Origin: Escherichia phage FFH2
Direction: 5' to 3' (one strand)
Length of the DNA: 64,000 nucleotides
Sequence record: KJ190158
The translations under genes were made by a program, and so were the position numbers. A model generated the notes under the pieces. That model worked only from the letters and a program-made list of their open reading frames with translations. It was not told where the DNA came from and did no database searches. Within the stretch, counting starts at the first letter, position 1, and the number at the start of each line of letters is the position of its first letter. Positions 22,006-58,963 of the stretch are shown one piece after another.

Positions 22006-22289
22006 TAATGAAAAAGATTAACAGTGGTGAAGTTGAGTTTAAACTTGTCGGGAAAGGCACTTACTGGGAAGTTCGTCAAAAGGTATATTTGTTCGGTCTT
22101 ATTCCCTATTGGTCTAAATTCTACTGGGGAGCTAACGAGTGGGGAAGATACGCCACCAAATCAATGGCACTTATTGGTATAGCAGAGTACATTGCAGCCA
22201 GAGATAGGGTTGGAGACACTTATTACTATACTGCGGACGATATTCGTAACAGTGTTTACGTCCCACAACCACCTGATGGAGACCGTTGA
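22002..22289 (+). CDS. hypothetical protein
   Basis: ORF coupled. Confidence 0.4.
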   Translation: MIMKKINSGEVEFKLVGKGTYWEVRQKVYLFGLIPYWSKFYWGANEWGRYATKSMALIGIAEYIAARDRVGDTYYYTADDIRNSVYVPQPPDGDR

Positions 22290-22513
22290 TGAAAGTTAAA
22301 GTTTTAGATTCAAGCTTCTATATTGGTCAGGAGCCTTTAGTAGGAAAAGTGTTTACTGCTGTCCCTAACGAAGATTACCCTGACCTTTTAAAAATAAAAG
22401 GAGCAGATCTTATTGCCGCTGGTGCATCTCAGGAATGCTTTGACAGTCAGTGGACCTACAACTTTGCCCTAGGTGAGGATGTAGAGGTAGTGGAGGACGA
22501 TCATGAAGGTTAA
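22286..22513 (+). CDS. small acidic protein, MKVK-family paralog 2
   Basis: MKVKVLDSSFYIGQ... LIAAGA ... VEVVEDD. Confidence 0.5.
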   Translation: MMKVKVLDSSFYIGQEPLVGKVFTAVPNEDYPDLLKIKGADLIAAGASQECFDSQWTYNFALGEDVEVVEDDHEG

Positions 22514-22757
22514 AATTCTTGATTCTAACGTCTACTTGGGACAATCCTTCCTGAATGGAAAGGTCGTTCCTGCGGTATACTTTGAAGGGTTGCCGTGGGA
22601 TGATCCTGTGCGGCAACATCACAGTTATGTAGGCCACAACGTGGTGTTTATCTTGGGATCAGACCTGATCACCGCTGGTGCACCTGAATATTATTTCGGG
22701 GAAGAGTCCTACTATGCCTTTGGGGTAGGGTCAGATGCAGATATTGTAGAGCTGTGA
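22503..22757 (+). CDS. small acidic protein, MKVK-family paralog 3
   Basis: MKVKILDSNVYLGQ... LITAGA ... DIVEL; similar to 22286. Confidence 0.5.
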   Translation: MKVKILDSNVYLGQSFLNGKVVPAVYFEGLPWDDPVRQHHSYVGHNVVFILGSDLITAGAPEYYFGEESYYAFGVGSDADIVEL

Positions 22758-22769
22758 TGGGTAACCGTT

Positions 22770-23168
22770 GTGAAAAATAAACTGTTTAAAGTTACAATGA
22801 AAATTCGCGGGGCTTGGAGCGTAAAGCAAGGGCGTATTCCAGAATTTGAGAAAGACTTCTACGTAGTCTCCACCTCGGAGGAGGCTGCATGCTGGCAGGC
22901 TGGCTATGCCTATGCAAGAACCTGGTACGAAGGGTACCAGACTGGGGGCTATGACGGAGAAATTATCAGCAAGGGTGTAGAAGAAATTAATGTGTTGACA
23001 AGTGAAAAAGTTTTTGTTATAGTGCATCCAGATTCCAGAGTGAAGCATTACTGGAATGCCAGAACAAAAACTTGGACACCGTTTGCAGATTCTGCTACGC
23101 CACTTTTAAACCAGAAAGCTCTTGACTCTGCCCCAAGTTATGGGGTTGTTGAAGAAAAGCTAAACTGA
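22770..23168 (+). CDS. hypothetical protein; paralog of 24975-25370
   Basis: Shared VIVHPDSRVKHYWNARTKTWTP / VMRHPHSNIAYYWDVLNNEWTP block. Confidence 0.45.
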   Translation: MKNKLFKVTMKIRGAWSVKQGRIPEFEKDFYVVSTSEEAACWQAGYAYARTWYEGYQTGGYDGEIISKGVEEINVLTSEKVFVIVHPDSRVKHYWNARTKTWTPFADSATPLLNQKALDSAPSYGVVEEKLN

Positions 23169-23185
23169 AACAGTGAGGTGTCACC

Positions 23186-23476
23186 ATGATGGATTTAATT
23201 CTAAATATTGATAACGCAGGAGAGTTTAAAGACGATGGTGTAACAAGCATGGACAAACCCTGCTCTGCTAAGGTTGACTCAAAATGGACCTACAAGTTTG
23301 ACGGAGAGATCTTCGCAAATGATGAGAAGGTTGTAGATGCTGCAGCCATTTTAAACGCTCTAGGGTACGACCCTGTGAATTCTTTGATCAAGGATCCTGT
23401 TGAGTTTGCAGAGTATGTTCGAAAAATGGCAGATCTTGCTGTGGATATTTTAAAAACTATCGACAACAAGCTGTAA
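23186..23476 (+). CDS. hypothetical protein
   Basis: ORF with gaggtgtcacc RBS. Confidence 0.4.
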   Translation: MMDLILNIDNAGEFKDDGVTSMDKPCSAKVDSKWTYKFDGEIFANDEKVVDAAAILNALGYDPVNSLIKDPVEFAEYVRKMADLAVDILKTIDNKL

Positions 23477-23482
23477 AAACTG

Positions 23483-23511
23483 TTGACACAACGCTTCAGA
23501 TTTAGTATCAT
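23483..23511 (+). promoter_or_regulatory. sigma70 promoter (TTGACA-17-TATCAT) followed by stem-loop 23520-23540
   Basis: Consensus -35. Hairpin aagagggtttggttccctctt lies between the promoter and the HPF gene. Confidence 0.55.
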
Positions 23512-23558
23512 TGTTTTCAAAGAGGGTTTGGTTCCCTCTTCTTTAAAAGGAACACGTT

Positions 23559-23876
23559 ATGCAAATTGAAATCACTGGCAACGTAGAAATCACTGAAGGT
23601 ATGGTGTCTTTCATTTCCCACAAAATGTCTAAGCTGGAGCGTTTGCACCCCTCTGCCAACTATGCACGTGTGAGTGTAAAAGTTGAAAATGATCACCAGG
23701 AAGTTATGGCGCTCATTTTTGACAATTCTGGAAAAGAAGTTATTGCCAGGGCTAAAGGTAGTGATGCTTACGAGGCAACTGACCGTATGGTAGATGTTGC
23801 AGCACGTCAGCTGGCTAAATGCGGTGGAAAGAAAGGTAAGGGGAAAGGCAAAGTAAAGATTGACTTTGGAGAATGA
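23559..23876 (+). CDS. hpf: ribosome hibernation promoting factor / RaiA (YfiA) homolog
   Basis: MQIEITGNVEITEGM...KLERLHP...VKVE...GKEVIARAKGSDAYEATDRMVDVAARQLAK aligns with the bacterial HPF/RaiA signature (MQLNITG..EIT..L.., A.G.D.Y.AID...DKL.RQL.K). Confidence 0.75.
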   Translation: MQIEITGNVEITEGMVSFISHKMSKLERLHPSANYARVSVKVENDHQEVMALIFDNSGKEVIARAKGSDAYEATDRMVDVAARQLAKCGGKKGKGKGKVKIDFGE

Positions 23877-24013
23877 GGTGCTACAATGGGCGTGATTAAG
23901 AAACTAGTCCCAAATGTAGAGATTGCATGCTTTGAAATTATGTTTGCAATCGCAGTTGTAGTTAATGTGTTAGGTTACGGCTATTAATATCAAATAATTG
24001 AGGAGACCTCTAA

Positions 24014-24283
24014 ATGAAAATTAAATTATTCAAAACTGAGCTGGCAGACAAAAACTGTGGACTGGTTGAAGGCATGATTGTCGAAGCACGACCAGTTGAC
24101 TATATGAAGGTGGTTCGTGATGCCCTGGGTGAAGGTTTTGATCTGATGGAGCCAGCTCTGCGAGAAGATGTTATCGAGATGGCTAAAAAGCACACACCTG
24201 AAGGAATGGTGGTGTTTGTTGCACCAGGTAACGGAGAAGAGTTGATTGTAACTCCGGATGTGTATGAGATTGTAGAGGAATAA
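24014..24283 (+). CDS. small acidic protein, MKxK-family paralog 4
   Basis: MKIKLF... C-terminal YEIVEE. Confidence 0.45.
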   Translation: MKIKLFKTELADKNCGLVEGMIVEARPVDYMKVVRDALGEGFDLMEPALREDVIEMAKKHTPEGMVVFVAPGNGEELIVTPDVYEIVEE

Positions 24284-24374
24284 TCCTGCTTGGATTAGCA
24301 TACTTCCTCGACAAGGAAGGTTTGTAATTATTTGTGGGAAAGGAATCCCAATCTCTTACCATAGGTGATACTAT

Positions 24375-24638
24375 ATGATTGTTTATTTTAAAACTTCAGG
24401 TGGATACCCTGATTCTCAAAGCTTGATCGGAAAAACGTGCACAGCATACTCACCTCTTGATGAGGAGGTAGGCGATATTCTACGAAATATGTATCGGATT
24501 GATCCCCAAGAAGCCTTTGATCAAAACCTTGTATTTGTCAAGGGCTCAGACATGAAGTCTTTGGGAGCATTCCCTGAAGCAGATGATGATGCCGTTTATT
24601 CGTTCATGACCCCTTTTGAAGCTATGGTTGTCGGGTGA
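24375..24638 (+). CDS. small acidic protein, family paralog 5
   Basis: YFKTSGGYPDSQSLIGK...; acidic; family-like. Confidence 0.4.
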   Translation: MIVYFKTSGGYPDSQSLIGKTCTAYSPLDEEVGDILRNMYRIDPQEAFDQNLVFVKGSDMKSLGAFPEADDDAVYSFMTPFEAMVVG

Positions 24639-24642
24639 TAAT

Positions 24643-24975
24643 ATGAAAGTACGCTTTATTGGTGAAACAATTCCTGTGCATCTCCGGTCGCCTGAAGATT
24701 CTGCAGATCTTGCATCTCAGAAGGCGAGAGGTTATGATAAGAAAGTAATCTCAACCGATGTAGAACTTGAGGCTACTAGTCTACCTGACCCTGCTGCATT
24801 CTTTAATCATTATGGATACTATTTCAGCAATCTGATGAATATCGGTGAGCTTGTGTTTATTAGTGGTGGAGAAATTGTTAGCAAGCTTGGCGGCGATCCG
24901 GATGTCTTTCATGAAACCTGTCCTTTTGCATTTGTGGTAGGTTCAGATGTGGAAGTTATTGAGGAGGTGCGGTAA
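24643..24975 (+). CDS. small acidic protein, family paralog 6 (start MKVRFIG)
   Basis: C-terminal VEVIEEVR. ATG 24643 preferred over 24616. Confidence 0.45.
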   Translation: MKVRFIGETIPVHLRSPEDSADLASQKARGYDKKVISTDVELEATSLPDPAAFFNHYGYYFSNLMNIGELVFISGGEIVSKLGGDPDVFHETCPFAFVVGSDVEVIEEVR

Positions 24976-25370
24976 TGGTAAGCCTATACCGTGTTGAGTA
25001 TAGCTCAGATACTGTGTACAACGTAAGAAGCAAAGATCGCAGCGACAGAGTGCAAGAAATGTATGTTCTTGCCGACAGTCCGTTATCTGCAGCGTTCAAG
25101 GCAGGGGCTCTTGCATCTCGTTGGAAATTTGAAGGCGGATCTTTCTATGAAGAAACCCTTGAAGATTCTGTTGTTATTTCTTCTGTAGAGGTTTCAGATG
25201 ACTACGAAGGGAAAAAGTTCGTAATGCGGCACCCACACAGCAACATTGCGTACTACTGGGATGTTCTGAACAACGAGTGGACCCCAGATCTTCAGAAGGC
25301 TACTGTGCTAACACCGTTTTTGGCAGATAAGTTCCCACCAGAAGGTAATTTATCCGCACTGTTTCAGTAA
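24975..25370 (+). CDS. hypothetical protein; paralog of 22770-23168
   Basis: Shared HP.S...YW.....WTP block. Confidence 0.45.
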   Translation: MVSLYRVEYSSDTVYNVRSKDRSDRVQEMYVLADSPLSAAFKAGALASRWKFEGGSFYEETLEDSVVISSVEVSDDYEGKKFVMRHPHSNIAYYWDVLNNEWTPDLQKATVLTPFLADKFPPEGNLSALFQ

Positions 25371-25387
25371 TTTTCTTGCACACAGGT

Positions 25388-25416
25388 GTTGACAACACCA
25401 ACCCTGTGTGAAATAA
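25388..25416 (+). promoter_or_regulatory. sigma70 promoter (TTGACA-17-AATAAT)
   Basis: Consensus -35 embedded in the imperfect palindrome cacaggtg..ccctgtgtg. Confidence 0.45.
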
Positions 25417-25446
25417 TACCTTCATCTTAACAAGACGGGAGACTGA

Positions 25447-25707
25447 TTGATGAAGATTAAACTGAAAAACCTTGAAATGGCAGAGATTCAGGATGGTGTT
25501 GATTTCCGCTCTAAAGATGGTGACATCTTAGAGGTAAATCTTCCAACCTACGAGCTGATTAAAGGTTTTGGCAACGTTCAGGAAGAGGATATTCCAGAAA
25601 TTCTTATGATGTTGATTCTTGACGGAACTGTGTTTGTAGGTGAAGGTGAGAACGCTATTGCAATCCCAGGCCATTTTTATGAAGTAGTTGACGAAGAGGT
25701 GCTGTAA
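25447..25707 (+). CDS. small acidic protein, family paralog 7
   Basis: MMKIKLKNLE... C-terminal EVVDEEVL. Confidence 0.45.
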   Translation: MMKIKLKNLEMAEIQDGVDFRSKDGDILEVNLPTYELIKGFGNVQEEDIPEILMMLILDGTVFVGEGENAIAIPGHFYEVVDEEVL

Positions 25708-26058
25708 ATGAAAGTAGAAATTACCGGTTTTGATGTGAATGTGGTTCCGGAAGATATTTTAGCTAAACTTCCAGAAGGTTTTGGTAACGGCGTTGTGGTG
25801 GATGCTGTTCCTCCTACCAAAGACATTCTGCTGCAGTATGGTGTAGCAGAGGAAGATGTCGATAAAGTTCTTACAATGATGGCAATCGATCGTGTTGTCG
25901 TTGTTAAAGGTCTCGATAATTTTGAGAGTGATCCACTGATTATTCGTGGAGATGACTACAAAATCATCGATAATGAAGGCCAAGAGTTCTATGAGCCTTG
26001 TGCAGAAGATATTCTTAACTTATTACTGGAAGCAGGCACCGAAGAGGAGGACGAATAA
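25708..26058 (+). CDS. small acidic protein, family paralog 8
   Basis: MKVEITGFDV...; highly acidic C-terminus. Confidence 0.45.
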   Translation: MKVEITGFDVNVVPEDILAKLPEGFGNGVVVDAVPPTKDILLQYGVAEEDVDKVLTMMAIDRVVVVKGLDNFESDPLIIRGDDYKIIDNEGQEFYEPCAEDILNLLLEAGTEEEDE

Positions 26059-26387
26059 TGAAGATTGACCCGTTACTGAAGGCTCGTGCAGAAAAAGCGT
26101 ACACCATTAAGTTGACCAACTTGGTTCCTACTTGTCATCCGGATGTAGGTTGGCCCGAAGGTTTGGTGGAGGGAACTGTAACAGCTGCATACCTTCCTAA
26201 CATCAAATACCTCATGGAAATCTTGGAGCTGGATGAGGAAACGGCAGAAGAGTTCCAGTTGGACATGAAACAAAGTGGGACTCTGGTTATTCACGGGTGG
26301 TATAATACTAAAGATGCAGAAGACCCTCTGGTAACTTCTAATCTGGCATATGAAATCTTAGGGCCTTTGAACCTGGAGGAAGACTAA
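26058..26387 (+). CDS. small acidic protein, family paralog 9
   Basis: MKIDPLLK...LNLEED. Confidence 0.4.
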   Translation: MKIDPLLKARAEKAYTIKLTNLVPTCHPDVGWPEGLVEGTVTAAYLPNIKYLMEILELDEETAEEFQLDMKQSGTLVIHGWYNTKDAEDPLVTSNLAYEILGPLNLEED

Positions 26388-26674
26388 TGAAAGATCTGGT
26401 TAAGATTAAGATTAAAGATACCAATGGAGAACTCAGTCATTTTGGAATTAATGATGGTGACGAGCTGATCGCACACCTGCCTACCAAGGAGGTTGTAAGC
26501 AAAGCAGTTGCCGGAGAAGAAGCTGCAATGCAGGCTGCAGGTGTGGATGAAAACTATGTAGCTATGTGCATGTGCCGAGATCAGGTTGTTCTGTATAAAG
26601 CGTATCGACCAAACGGAGCCACGGAGTGGCTTGTATTCCGACCCGAAGGATATGAAATCTTAGAGGCACTATGA
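26387..26674 (+). CDS. small acidic protein, family paralog 10
   Basis: MKDLVKIKIKD...EILEAL. Confidence 0.4.
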   Translation: MKDLVKIKIKDTNGELSHFGINDGDELIAHLPTKEVVSKAVAGEEAAMQAAGVDENYVAMCMCRDQVVLYKAYRPNGATEWLVFRPEGYEILEAL

Positions 26675-29372: not shown

Positions 29373-30823
29373 CACACAATTAGCTGCCCGGCTAAAGTGC
29401 TGGAAGCACCTATAACACATCTTTCAACTAAATTTCCTACCACCACAATCACTTACCTCCCACACATGACTGTTTGCTTGTTTAGTGAGCAGTCATGCCT
29501 TGACATTCTTGCCTATCCTGATAAAATTAAGTTCTTCTCTTTTCTTTTACCGAGTAATTCGGGTTTTCTGTTCTCTTCGGTTTGAAGGGGTATAGAGATA
29601 CACCTGAGTGAACAGGGTGAACAACCGAACATTTGGCTATGGCATTAGCATGGCGAAGCGGACGGGTGACGAAAGAGGGGCCGGAGGACACCAGTCACTG
29701 CCATATGATATATGGGTGATAACCTGAAGAGTCTGAATAAGTGTTTAAGTACCAGTCAGAGGAAAAGGTGAATGGTAGCCGAAGGGGGAGGGGGGTTTCT
29801 TGTATCTTTAATTTGTATATTATGTATACACTTGTAAACCAATCTCATCTGAATTTGTTTACCACACAAAGTGGATAGGGACAAATATTACCTATTAAAC
29901 TTGAATTATTTATAGAAATACCACAACACCACTTAAGTCTTTGATTTTACACACAAATCCTACAGATATTCACCCTCCATATTTAACATACCTGTAACAT
30001 ATTCCATACCCTACCTGACCGATCAATTCACCCAACTACATCCCCATATTTTCCCTGTCTGTACTACCCCTGCCCCGCCGGGAGTCCCGTCATATCTGGC
30101 TTTCCAGCAAATATCACACCCACAAATATCATTGCCTGAAGAGGGTTTCATCCCATAATACATGCCTTACCTGAAGAGCGCTTCATACACCACGTAAATT
30201 TTTTAATTGACCCCCTCCCCGCCGCCGGAGAGGTTGGCTTTTCCCACACAGACCTGAAGAGTCAGCCAGAAATATCTGAACAGGTCCAGCTATGCCACGA
30301 TTTTGTGCTTGTCCTACAGGAGTGCCTCCCTGTCAGGAGCCGGTAGCGACTGGAGTGCTGCCAGGCGGACGAAATGGGAATCATTCTCATTCTTATAACA
30401 ATTCTCAAATATCGAGGCAGTGAGGCAAATTAATAGGTGAGGCCGTTCACACAATGGCACAACATTTGCAACCTATCTTGTGGGAGTGAATGAGAATACC
30501 TATCATTGTGAGAATAGTTATCATTACGGGCAATTTAACATAATACCCATTATGCGCACCACTGGCGATCCATACAGGGATTGATAACATGGGTTACTGT
30601 TTACACACATAACAATTATATTTCTTACTATTTGTGTGGGATATAGTTAGCAGCCGATAGATTAGATATTGACCTGTAGACTTCCAACCGTCCAGACGTC
30701 TAAACGCCCACACAACAAGGGTTATACATACACAACTGAATGTAAACAGGGCCGCAAAAATGCTACCATACAAGCTTGTAAATTTTTCATGCAGCACTTG
30801 ACAAAGAGGAGGAAAACTTGTCT

Positions 30824-30894
30824 GACACTTTAGACACAATAGTGACATAATATGACATAATGGTGACACTGAACATAATTGACATGCCTGACTG
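30824..30894. repeat. helically phased array of TGACA pentamers (about 8 copies at ~10-11 bp spacing)
   Basis: TGACA/AGACA at 30824, 30833, 30844, 30854, 30865, 30881, 30890 (plus 30800) in an ORF-free region. Confidence 0.6.
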
Positions 30895-30928
30895 TTTACA
30901 TAGCTAACTATTCATACAGAAATGATAA

Positions 30929-31161
30929 GCCATGCCATTCGTTTGCATGATAATAATTAACTTGTTTACAATAGATGACATAATATAAAAGCAGGGCAAC
31001 TATTAGAAGATCTATAGTTGCCTTGCTTGTTATGTCATGATTAACTAAATACAAGGCAACTATGATCTGATTAATAGTTTGCAGACAAACTATCACGGGG
31101 GTGATGGTTACTGCTTTTATATTATGTCGCGACTCCGTCGCGCCATGCCATTCGTTTGCAT
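30929..31161. repeat. nested repeat structure: 20-bp direct repeats flanking 18-bp inverted repeats that enclose caactat inverted iterons
   Basis: gccatgccattcgtttgcat occurs at 30929-48 and 31142-61; gacataatataaaagcag at 30977-94 pairs with ctgcttttatattatgtc at 31111-28; ggcaactat..atagttgcc at 30995-31022. Confidence 0.6.
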
Positions 31162-31774
31162 AGTTGCCTTATTGTTACAGATAAAATAATTGTATTGTTA
31201 ATTATTTCTTATCTTTCTCTTAGTCATCTAATGATTCCAGTCAGTATAGTAATGTACAGTAAACATTAGACGACTAAAGATTTCTCTGTTTATTATAACT
31301 TACCGTGACAATTTCAGGCTGTTTACGAAAAATGTTGACACCTGGGCCGATTTATGTTATGCAGTTTACACGAATAATTATTTTATGCAGGTATTGACTA
31401 TTCCGTTATTCTATGGTTGGAATAAATACTTAGCAGACTATAGAATGGTGAGCGTACGTAAATTCTGAGATCTGGCGGCTATAGTTATACTCGATTTTTC
31501 ACGTAGAACACGCTTTTGTTAGTGTGTAAGTGTATGACTTATAAAGATTTTTAGTTGTTGACAAGATATTGAAGATGTGCATCAGGTTAAATTTTGTGCA
31601 ATAGCGGCATTACGTGCAATTTTGAGAGAGAAAACGGGTAAAAATGGCCTTGCTATCACACAATGAAAAATTATGCAATAGTTATTTTACATGTATGTTT
31701 GTACAGTGTGTGGGATTGATGGCTAGTCAATTATTCCACTTGCCAGGCTGGGCCGTTTGTGGTAGGAGAAATAC

Positions 31775-31808
31775 AGACAAAAAGAAAGGGGCCTTTTAAA
31801 GCCCCTGA
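31775..31808 (-). terminator. rho-independent terminator ending the leftward early cluster
   Basis: On the - strand: aggggctttaaaaggcccct followed by ttctttttgtc. Confidence 0.65.
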
Positions 31809-38716: not shown

Positions 38717-38744
38717 ATTATACTTATTGAGATTTACTTGTCAA
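38717..38744 (-). promoter_or_regulatory. sigma70 promoter (TTGACA-16-TATAAT)
   Basis: Consensus hexamers on the - strand. Confidence 0.6.
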
Positions 38745-58480: not shown

Positions 58481-58963
58481 TTAAACCCGGATACCTATTG
58501 TATACTCGGTGGATACCAATGTCAAATCTAAATTTAAAATTTCTTGCATCTCATAGTATGCGTCCAGGGTGAGATACATTTCCCCATCCTTTTCTACATA
58601 TTTGTCCAAGTGCTTGAGGCATTTCGGATAACTATCAAGTGCAGCTTTCAGGCACTCAAACTCTGTGCTGTTGATGAACCCTTCCATCTTGGCTACCCGT
58701 TCTGGGGTAACGATAGCACTGTAGTGAGATTTAGCTTCCTGAATGCAATGCGTCCAAGCATCAACCTTCTCTTCGAAAAGCCCGAAGAACTTCTTTTTGG
58801 TGAGCTTCAGATTCTTCAAGTGCTTAAGCACTCGGTTGCCGATTACAGCCACATCACGAAACTTAAGGATCACCTTGTCGATATCCTCGCGGCCTATTTT
58901 CACAAAGCAGGCTTCGCACATTTCAGGGGCTGCGTAACCTACTTTCCACATAAAATCTGACAT
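58481..58963 (-). CDS. hypothetical protein (160 aa)
   Basis: ORF. Confidence 0.4.
   Translation of the reverse strand: MSDFMWKVGYAAPEMCEACFVKIGREDIDKVILKFRDVAVIGNRVLKHLKNLKLTKKKFFGLFEEKVDAWTHCIQEAKSHYSAIVTPERVAKMEGFINSTEFECLKAALDSYPKCLKHLDKYVEKDGEMYLTLDAYYEMQEILNLDLTLVSTEYTIGIRV

Follow-up and report, generated by a model that had tools for sequence, protein, structure and literature searches.

The hpf locus and its predicted transcription unit

The locus described here lies in a 64,000-nucleotide stretch of DNA from Escherichia phage FFH2 (sequence record KJ190158), which was analysed at its full length and is called the window in the following. It consists of a short gene, hpf, preceded by a promoter, a leader stem-loop and a Shine–Dalgarno-like site. 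The following features were assigned.

23483..23511, + strand: sigma-70-type promoter TTGACA-17-TATCAT, equivalent to P144 of phage rV5 (11/12 consensus matches, rV5 annotation and conservation)
23520..23540, + strand: leader stem-loop at the predicted 5' end of the transcript, with a 7-bp stem (AAGAGGG/CCCTCTT) and a 7-nt loop (TTTGGTT)
23547..23551, + strand: Shine–Dalgarno-like AAGGA, 7 nt before the ATG, kept in 9/9 Vequintavirus loci
23559..23876, + strand: hpf open reading frame with a 105-aa product, read from the sequence
23559..23822, + strand: codons 1-88, HPF/RaiA-family domain (profile, pairwise, structural and dN/dS evidence)
23823..23876, + strand: codons 89-105 and the stop codon, polybasic tail GGKKGKGKGKVKIDFGE (pLDDT, charge and isolate comparison)

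Both promoter hexamers (TTGACA at 23483-23488 and TATCAT at 23506-23511, separated by a 17-nt spacer, within the 16-18 nt usual for sigma-70) were found at the coordinates given in the earlier note on this DNA, and they match the consensus at 11 of 12 positions. The hexamers were unchanged in nine Vequintavirus loci; the spacer was mutated in phages Aya and FV3. At the homologous position the rV5 record (DQ832317) carries the annotation 'Sigma70-type promoter; P144'. Sites with at least 11 of 12 matches occurred nine times on the + strand and 11 times on the − strand of the 64-kb window, compared with 0.87 ± 1.0 per strand in mononucleotide shuffles, which corresponds to a more than tenfold enrichment of near-consensus promoters. 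We infer a transcription start at ~23518-23520; a literature search found no transcriptome, transcript-timing or start-site data for rV5-like phages.

From P144, hpf would be transcribed early by the host RNA polymerase as the first gene of a small operon, and the transcript probably runs through the next five small ORFs as far as a strong promoter at 25389-25417. The signals detected between hpf and this promoter were limited to a weaker site resembling a promoter (23860-23887) and a hairpin of weak terminator character (24303-24319). The earlier note had described P144 as the gene's own promoter; it is better termed the promoter of a sub-operon beginning with hpf. The weaker site (TTGACT-16-TACAAT, preceded by TG) coincides in part with the 3' end of hpf and is immediately followed by a 33-aa ORF (23887..23988; rV5 ORF 145) that is named 'putative membrane protein' in some records.

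The leader hairpin was confirmed at exactly the position previously given for it, with a folding energy of −9.9 kcal/mol (z = −2.35; three of 200 shuffled sequences folded equally well). In most Vequintavirus loci its stem is conserved and its loop is variable. An interpretation as a conserved regulatory structure was rejected because compensatory changes are absent, a G-to-A mismatch in the stem reduces the hairpin to −4.4 kcal/mol in the clade formed by nomo, Murica and V18, and the hairpin is missing from the sister lineage described below (L010-L012). An intrinsic terminator was also rejected: the tail that follows the stem, TCTTTAAAA, is too T-poor for the terminator scan, rV5 annotates no terminator there, and a terminator downstream of the −10 element would abort the P144 transcripts. 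In E. coli, stem-loops at the 5' terminus are a textbook means of slowing 5'-end-dependent decay, and by analogy the leader hairpin is possibly a stabilizer of the hpf mRNA. A promoter followed by a 5' hairpin is not a recurrent design in the window, since only ~4 of the 20 strong promoters have one. On the − strand, the near-consensus promoters at 38717-38744 and 58497-58525 have leader hairpins of −14.6 and −20.0 kcal/mol, respectively, within the first 40 nt, both of which are stronger than the hpf hairpin.

The gene is situated amid apparently paralogous small ORFs (22286-26674) of ~75-120 aa, all of which are hypothetical in rV5. Several of these start with MK(V/I)K and end in an acidic YEIVEE, VEVIEE, YEVVDEE or YEILEAL, and a pair of ORFs encoding 132 aa (22770..23168) and 131 aa (24975..25370) have the motif HP.S...YW...W.TP in common. 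Further downstream, at the junction of the + strand and − strand gene arrays, ~2.4 kb (29400-31800) contain almost no ORFs; this region corresponds to the 'non-coding' box 104013-106618 of rV5. Its AT content is high (GC 0.34-0.37 at 30.5-32 kb) and short repeats are densely packed in it. Among them, 20 nt at 30929-30948 recur without mismatch as a direct repeat at 31142-31161, an inverted repeat of 18 nt, also perfect, pairs 30977-30994 with 31111-31128, and a hairpin has its arms at 30989-31003 and 31014-31028. The region may serve as an origin of replication, have a regulatory role or encode an unknown RNA; when the 64-kb window, the ORF-poor region included, was scanned for Rfam families and tRNAs, there were no matches.

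Family assignment, structure model and putative ribosome contacts

The 105-aa product, with the sequence quoted in the earlier note, had been taken there for a homologue of HPF and RaiA, and a profile search and a structural superposition had been proposed as checks. Both bore the assignment out. The protein was matched by the Pfam profile PF02482 (Ribosomal_S30AE) over residues 3-88 with a score of 48.2 bits (cut-off 23.7, E = 1.8e-12) and by the NCBIfam HPF/YfiA family model TIGR00741 with 46 bits (cut-off 40.9). E. coli HPF chains were aligned to residues 1-89 by phmmer (E = 5e-12), and BLASTP gave 42% identity to E. coli HPF (E = 4e-18) and 25% identity to E. coli RaiA. The alignment with HPF spans residues 1 to ~91, so the homology formerly claimed along the whole length holds for this portion and not for the tail, which is unaligned. 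All six near-invariant positions of the family are kept (T12, A63, D69, Y71, D75 and Q84) and the pI of the domain (5.9) is like that of the E. coli HPF domain. Scores with the two equivalog models were below their cut-offs (55.5 bits against 125 for NF007780, the enterobacterial YhbH-type short HPF, which is further marked by turning 90S into 100S dimers in an RMF-dependent manner, and 17.4 bits against 158 for NF007654, RaiA/YfiA). With 105 aa and a single Pfam domain the protein is not a long HPF of the Gram-positive type, which has a C-terminal dimerization domain and a total of ~180-190 aa.

A model was predicted with AlphaFold2 from an alignment of five sequences, with a pLDDT of ~92 over residues 1-88. 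It contains strands at residues 2-7, 33-42, 47-55 and 60-67 and helices at residues 13-29 and 70-89. The best 35 PDB matches of the model were without exception HPF, RaiA or protein Y, that is, ribosome-bound or ribosome-binding proteins of the HPF/RaiA family. Superposition on ribosome-bound E. coli HPF (6h4n_x) gave an r.m.s.d. of 1.2 Å over 89 columns and superposition on Vibrio cholerae HPF (4hei) gave 1.1 Å, within a range of 1.1-1.5 Å for solved HPFs. Matches to T7 Gp1.2 and to the dsRNA-binding domain fold (TM 0.4-0.5) were rejected as generic alpha/beta resemblance. Because the profile, pairwise and structural tests all agree, membership of the HPF/RaiA family is established; within it, the protein belongs to the short HPF type and is closer to HPF than to RaiA. 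It is nearest to the enterobacterial short HPF subfamily, yet it is the equivalog of neither E. coli paralogue. Names in other GenBank records comprise hpf, ribosome hibernation factor and RaiA, and the RefSeq name 'RaiA' fits less well than 'HPF'.

The ribosome-contacting residues were compared using a published list of HPF–ribosome contacts (bioRxiv 10.1101/2025.10.07.680626). Six positions are kept or conservatively replaced, namely Lys26 (Lys25 in the phage protein), Gln29 (Arg28), Glu60, Arg83, Lys87 and Lys91; all of these bar Gln29 are contacts of the E. coli short HPF (YhbH; PDB entries 2rql, 6h4n and 6h58) that the phage protein retains. Lys80, which is described as strictly conserved and rRNA-contacting, is replaced by Val in the phage protein and by Thr in the sister lineage, and 18 of the 21 homologues from cells or metagenomes carry Lys there. 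Further replacements in the phage protein are Lys89 by Gly, Asp/Glu51 by Met and His55 by Phe. Five basic residues in helix alpha2 and at the C-terminus form the track in contact with 16S rRNA (Lys80, Arg83, Lys87, Lys89 and Lys91); the phage protein keeps three of them (Arg83, Lys87 and Lys91), and additional lysines are present at positions 92, 94, 96, 98 and 100.

The Lys/Gly-rich tail reported previously is present at residues 89-105. It carries a net charge of +4, and a pLDDT of below 50 for residues 91-105 predicts it to be disordered. Compared with E. coli HPF, the phage protein has a one-residue deletion in the beta1-alpha1 loop and its 17-residue tail replaces the 7-residue end KDKLKQH. 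E. coli RaiA (YfiA, protein Y) has the same fold, belongs to the same binding-site family and, like the phage protein, has a C-terminal extension that exceeds the HPF end in length; the last part of the RaiA tail is acidic, whereas the phage tail is polybasic and unrelated in sequence. The RaiA extension heads towards the RMF site and confers inactivation of 70S ribosomes that does not depend on RMF.

Both the length and the reading frame of the tail differ among isolates, giving proteins of 99-106 aa and leaving the domain intact. The Murica protein has 99 aa, that of APECc02 has 101 aa with a shifted frame, that of JEP1 has 103 aa and that of FV3 ends in FWD; the tail in the sister lineage has another sequence and is likewise basic. 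The tail-coding DNA (23823-23873) is a purine-rich low-complexity run, GGTGGAAAGAAAGGTAAGGGGAAAGGCAAAG, and frameshifts or truncations are found at the homologous tail positions of four loci (L004, L005, L007 and L008; 99, 101, 103 and 106 aa). The differences could be genuine and due to slippage, or they could be artefacts of sequencing through homopolymers.

Distribution, selection and origin

The 2.5 kb around hpf match rV5-like phages (genus Vequintavirus) with 98-99.6% identity. The rV5 protein gp144 (ABI79209; P0001) is 98% identical and its gene has the same P144, leader and neighbouring genes; the FFH2 protein departs from the genus consensus at two residues only, Leu52 (for Phe) and Arg64 (for Lys). 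A tblastn search of a 50,697-record phage collection (E ≤ 1e-3) found hpf in 117 records, all of them Vequintavirus bar one misfiled Salmonella genome. The gene is thus conserved throughout the genus, and rV5-like phages are, along with Cronobacter phage GAP32, the published cultivated example of a phage HPF, so that the earlier note was mistaken in calling it uncommon in this kind of phage. Neither the literature searched nor the named BFVD matches bore out its statement that cyanophages are the best-known carriers of such genes. In cyanophage papers 'hibernation' denotes a phage lifestyle and not an HPF gene, and a protein of Azotobacter phage TayeBlu has been likened to a different factor family, with Helena-Bueno 2024 cited.

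GenBank and two Nature Communications papers already contain hpf together with its family assignment and promoter; added here are the selection on the gene, the age of its acquisition, the departures at contact residues and the behaviour of the tail. In the rV5 record (DQ832317) ORF 144 is named 'sigma 54 modulation factor' (ABI79209). Viral HPF was reported in seven cultivated phages, with rV5 ABI79209 on the list, by Mizuno et al. (2019; PMC6375957); six of the phages infect E. coli and are close relatives of one another, and the seventh is Cronobacter phage GAP32. The HPF annotation was repeated by Mathieu et al. (2020). Several records are annotated otherwise. In OR062528, MT884008 and MT884010 the gene is mislabelled 'ATP-dependent protease La Type I'. 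The APECc02 record places 'sigma 54 modulation factor' on an unrelated downstream 89-aa ORF (the homologue of rV5 ORF 146), from where the label was propagated to nomo, and marks its true hpf as hypothetical. The host label of 18 'Campylobacter phage' records (MG0656xx) looks doubtful because they are 98-99.6% identical to this coliphage region.

The hpf gene is under strong purifying selection. Over codons 1-88, pairwise dN/dS was 0.02-0.2 in nearly all pairs, and the rV5 and FV3 genes differ by 16 synonymous and no non-synonymous changes.

A word-indexed homologue search returned five proteins, all from the phage clade; the cellular relatives came from an exhaustive HMMER search of 1.84 billion representative proteins, which gave 24 at E ≤ 1e-3. 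The best relative beyond the phage clade among these representatives was an enterobacterial-type HPF with 45% identity (E = 3.6e-7). A sister lineage of Vequintavirus (L010-L012) was found in the Logan contigs ERR6997038_58, ERR4623478_391 and SRR25571739_58736, which extend up to ~137 kb; its proteins are partly deposited as E. coli assembly entries (EFM7019398.1 and EMB7054210.1). Gene order in this lineage is that of Vequintavirus, and a third of 8 kb aligns at ~73-76% DNA identity; the lineage is uncatalogued and absent from the 50,697-record phage collection. Its HPF (P0004) is 63% identical to the phage protein and encoded at the syntenic position.

The composition of hpf (GC 0.434, GC3 0.387) equals that of its neighbours (0.428 ± 0.020 and 0.397 ± 0.044). 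Recent horizontal transfer was rejected, and the acquisition of hpf is old, because the composition matches that of the phage, identity to cellular HPFs reaches 42-45% at most and a syntenic 63% identical copy is present in the sister lineage. Its source would have been a gammaproteobacterial host lineage, with strong purifying selection retaining the gene ever since this early capture.

The jumbo phages GAP32 and Escherichia phage PBECO4 are enterobacterial myoviruses that also encode PF02482-fold proteins. These were matched by Foldseek in BFVD (E = 6e-7 to 1.5e-6, TM 0.66-0.73). They share just 16-24% identity with the phage HPF and were missed by tblastn at E ≤ 1e-3, which argues for an independent acquisition; the GAP32 protein groups with Firmicutes sequences in the tree of Mizuno et al. 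(PMC6375957).

Proposed role on the ribosome

Gene 144 of the rV5-like coliphages probably encodes a short HPF-type hibernation factor that is expressed early and docks on host ribosomes (rough probability 0.6). As with cellular HPF, the domain would dock in the 30S decoding channel (A, P and E sites) of vacant host ribosomes, using the retained Lys25, Arg28, Glu60, Arg83, Lys87 and Lys91. The disordered polybasic tail would add non-specific affinity for rRNA and may compensate for the lost Lys80 and Lys89; it may extend towards the RMF site, and binding may be independent of RMF, as for RaiA. The likely net effect would be that idle ribosomes are parked or protected, or that host hibernation factors are competed against, in slow-growing or stressed cells. 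Simple silencing of translation is not obviously beneficial, because a block of the decoding site would also stop translation of the phage.

Against this reading stand the lost contact residues and the sole experiment found in the literature, in which rV5 HPF was not recovered with salt-washed 70S and 100S ribosomes. The negative result is not decisive, because high-salt washing, here with 500 mM NH4Cl, also strips cellular RMF, HPF and RaiA. [quoted passage not shown] The cells were harvested at OD600 = 1 and the ribosomes were pelleted through 500 mM NH4Cl; the authors call the result inconclusive (PMC6375957). The earlier note had held that a lack of ribosome association in vitro would speak against its proposal, and such a lack has in part been published, for high-salt-washed 70S and 100S, under conditions that disfavour binding (PMC6375957).

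The alternative that comes next, which we consider unlikely though worth weighing, was proposed by Mizuno et al. (2019; PMC6375957). Here, the protein would counteract hibernation by binding weakly or transiently at the HPF/RaiA site, displacing or excluding host HPF, RaiA and RMF. The benefit, for which we would claim as little, would be that ribosomes of stationary-phase or stressed hosts stay or become available for phage mRNAs. The loss of Lys80, Lys89 and Asp/Glu51 suggests binding of lower affinity or of an altered kind; the protein was missing from salt-washed ribosomes, and 100S levels did not rise with its expression (PMC6375957); and its tail is longer than that of HPF, as is the RaiA tail, which points to the RMF site. 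A weak binder would, however, be a poor rival to abundant host factors. Early sigma-70 expression would moreover take place in growing cells too, in which there is little hibernation to relieve.

It is somewhat less likely again that the HPF fold has been kept for a non-ribosomal RNA or protein target, for example in a small RNA-binding or inhibitor protein of early host takeover. In its favour, Lys80, Lys89 and Asp/Glu51 are lost and the published ribosome-association assay was negative (PMC6375957). Strongly conserved contacts have been lost in both phage lineages, the proteins form an isolated clade whose nearest non-phage relative is 45% identical (E = 3.6e-7), the scores are far below the HPF and RaiA equivalog cut-offs and hpf sits amid dozens of small early ORFs without known function. 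On the other hand, Arg83, Lys87, Lys91, Lys25, Arg28 and Glu60 are kept together with all near-invariant family positions, 35 of the 35 top structural matches are HPF/RaiA and non-family folds match weakly (TM ~0.4-0.5), and the conditions of the negative assay disfavour binding.

A decaying passenger gene or a sigma-54 modulator is highly improbable: the old annotation 'sigma 54 modulation factor' goes back only to the location of the gene within the rpoN operon rather than to any demonstrated activity, the tail frameshifts and truncations of some isolates leave the domain intact, and decay is ruled out by a dN/dS of 0.02-0.2 over the domain and by retention across the genus and the sister lineage.

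Alongside the preferred reading of an early-expressed, ribosome-docking hibernation factor, we put forward with considerable reserve that the protein is a functionally diverged hibernation-factor mimic and no simple copy, having lost the Lys80, Lys89 and Asp/Glu51 contacts that are otherwise conserved and acquired its disordered polybasic tail, which would bind host ribosomes readily reversibly and independently of RMF and either counter the shutdown of host ribosomes or shield the 16S decoding centre from nucleases. The shutdown that it might counter would be hibernation or defence-triggered dormancy; if this equally doubtful proposal is true, the mimic would be a means by which the phage counters ribosome hibernation. 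Few phage genes act on the ribosome, and how virulent phages fare with dormant or slow-growing hosts is an active question. Since rV5-like phages are common in gut, food-safety and phage-therapy collections, the role of their conserved hpf gene would be useful to know.
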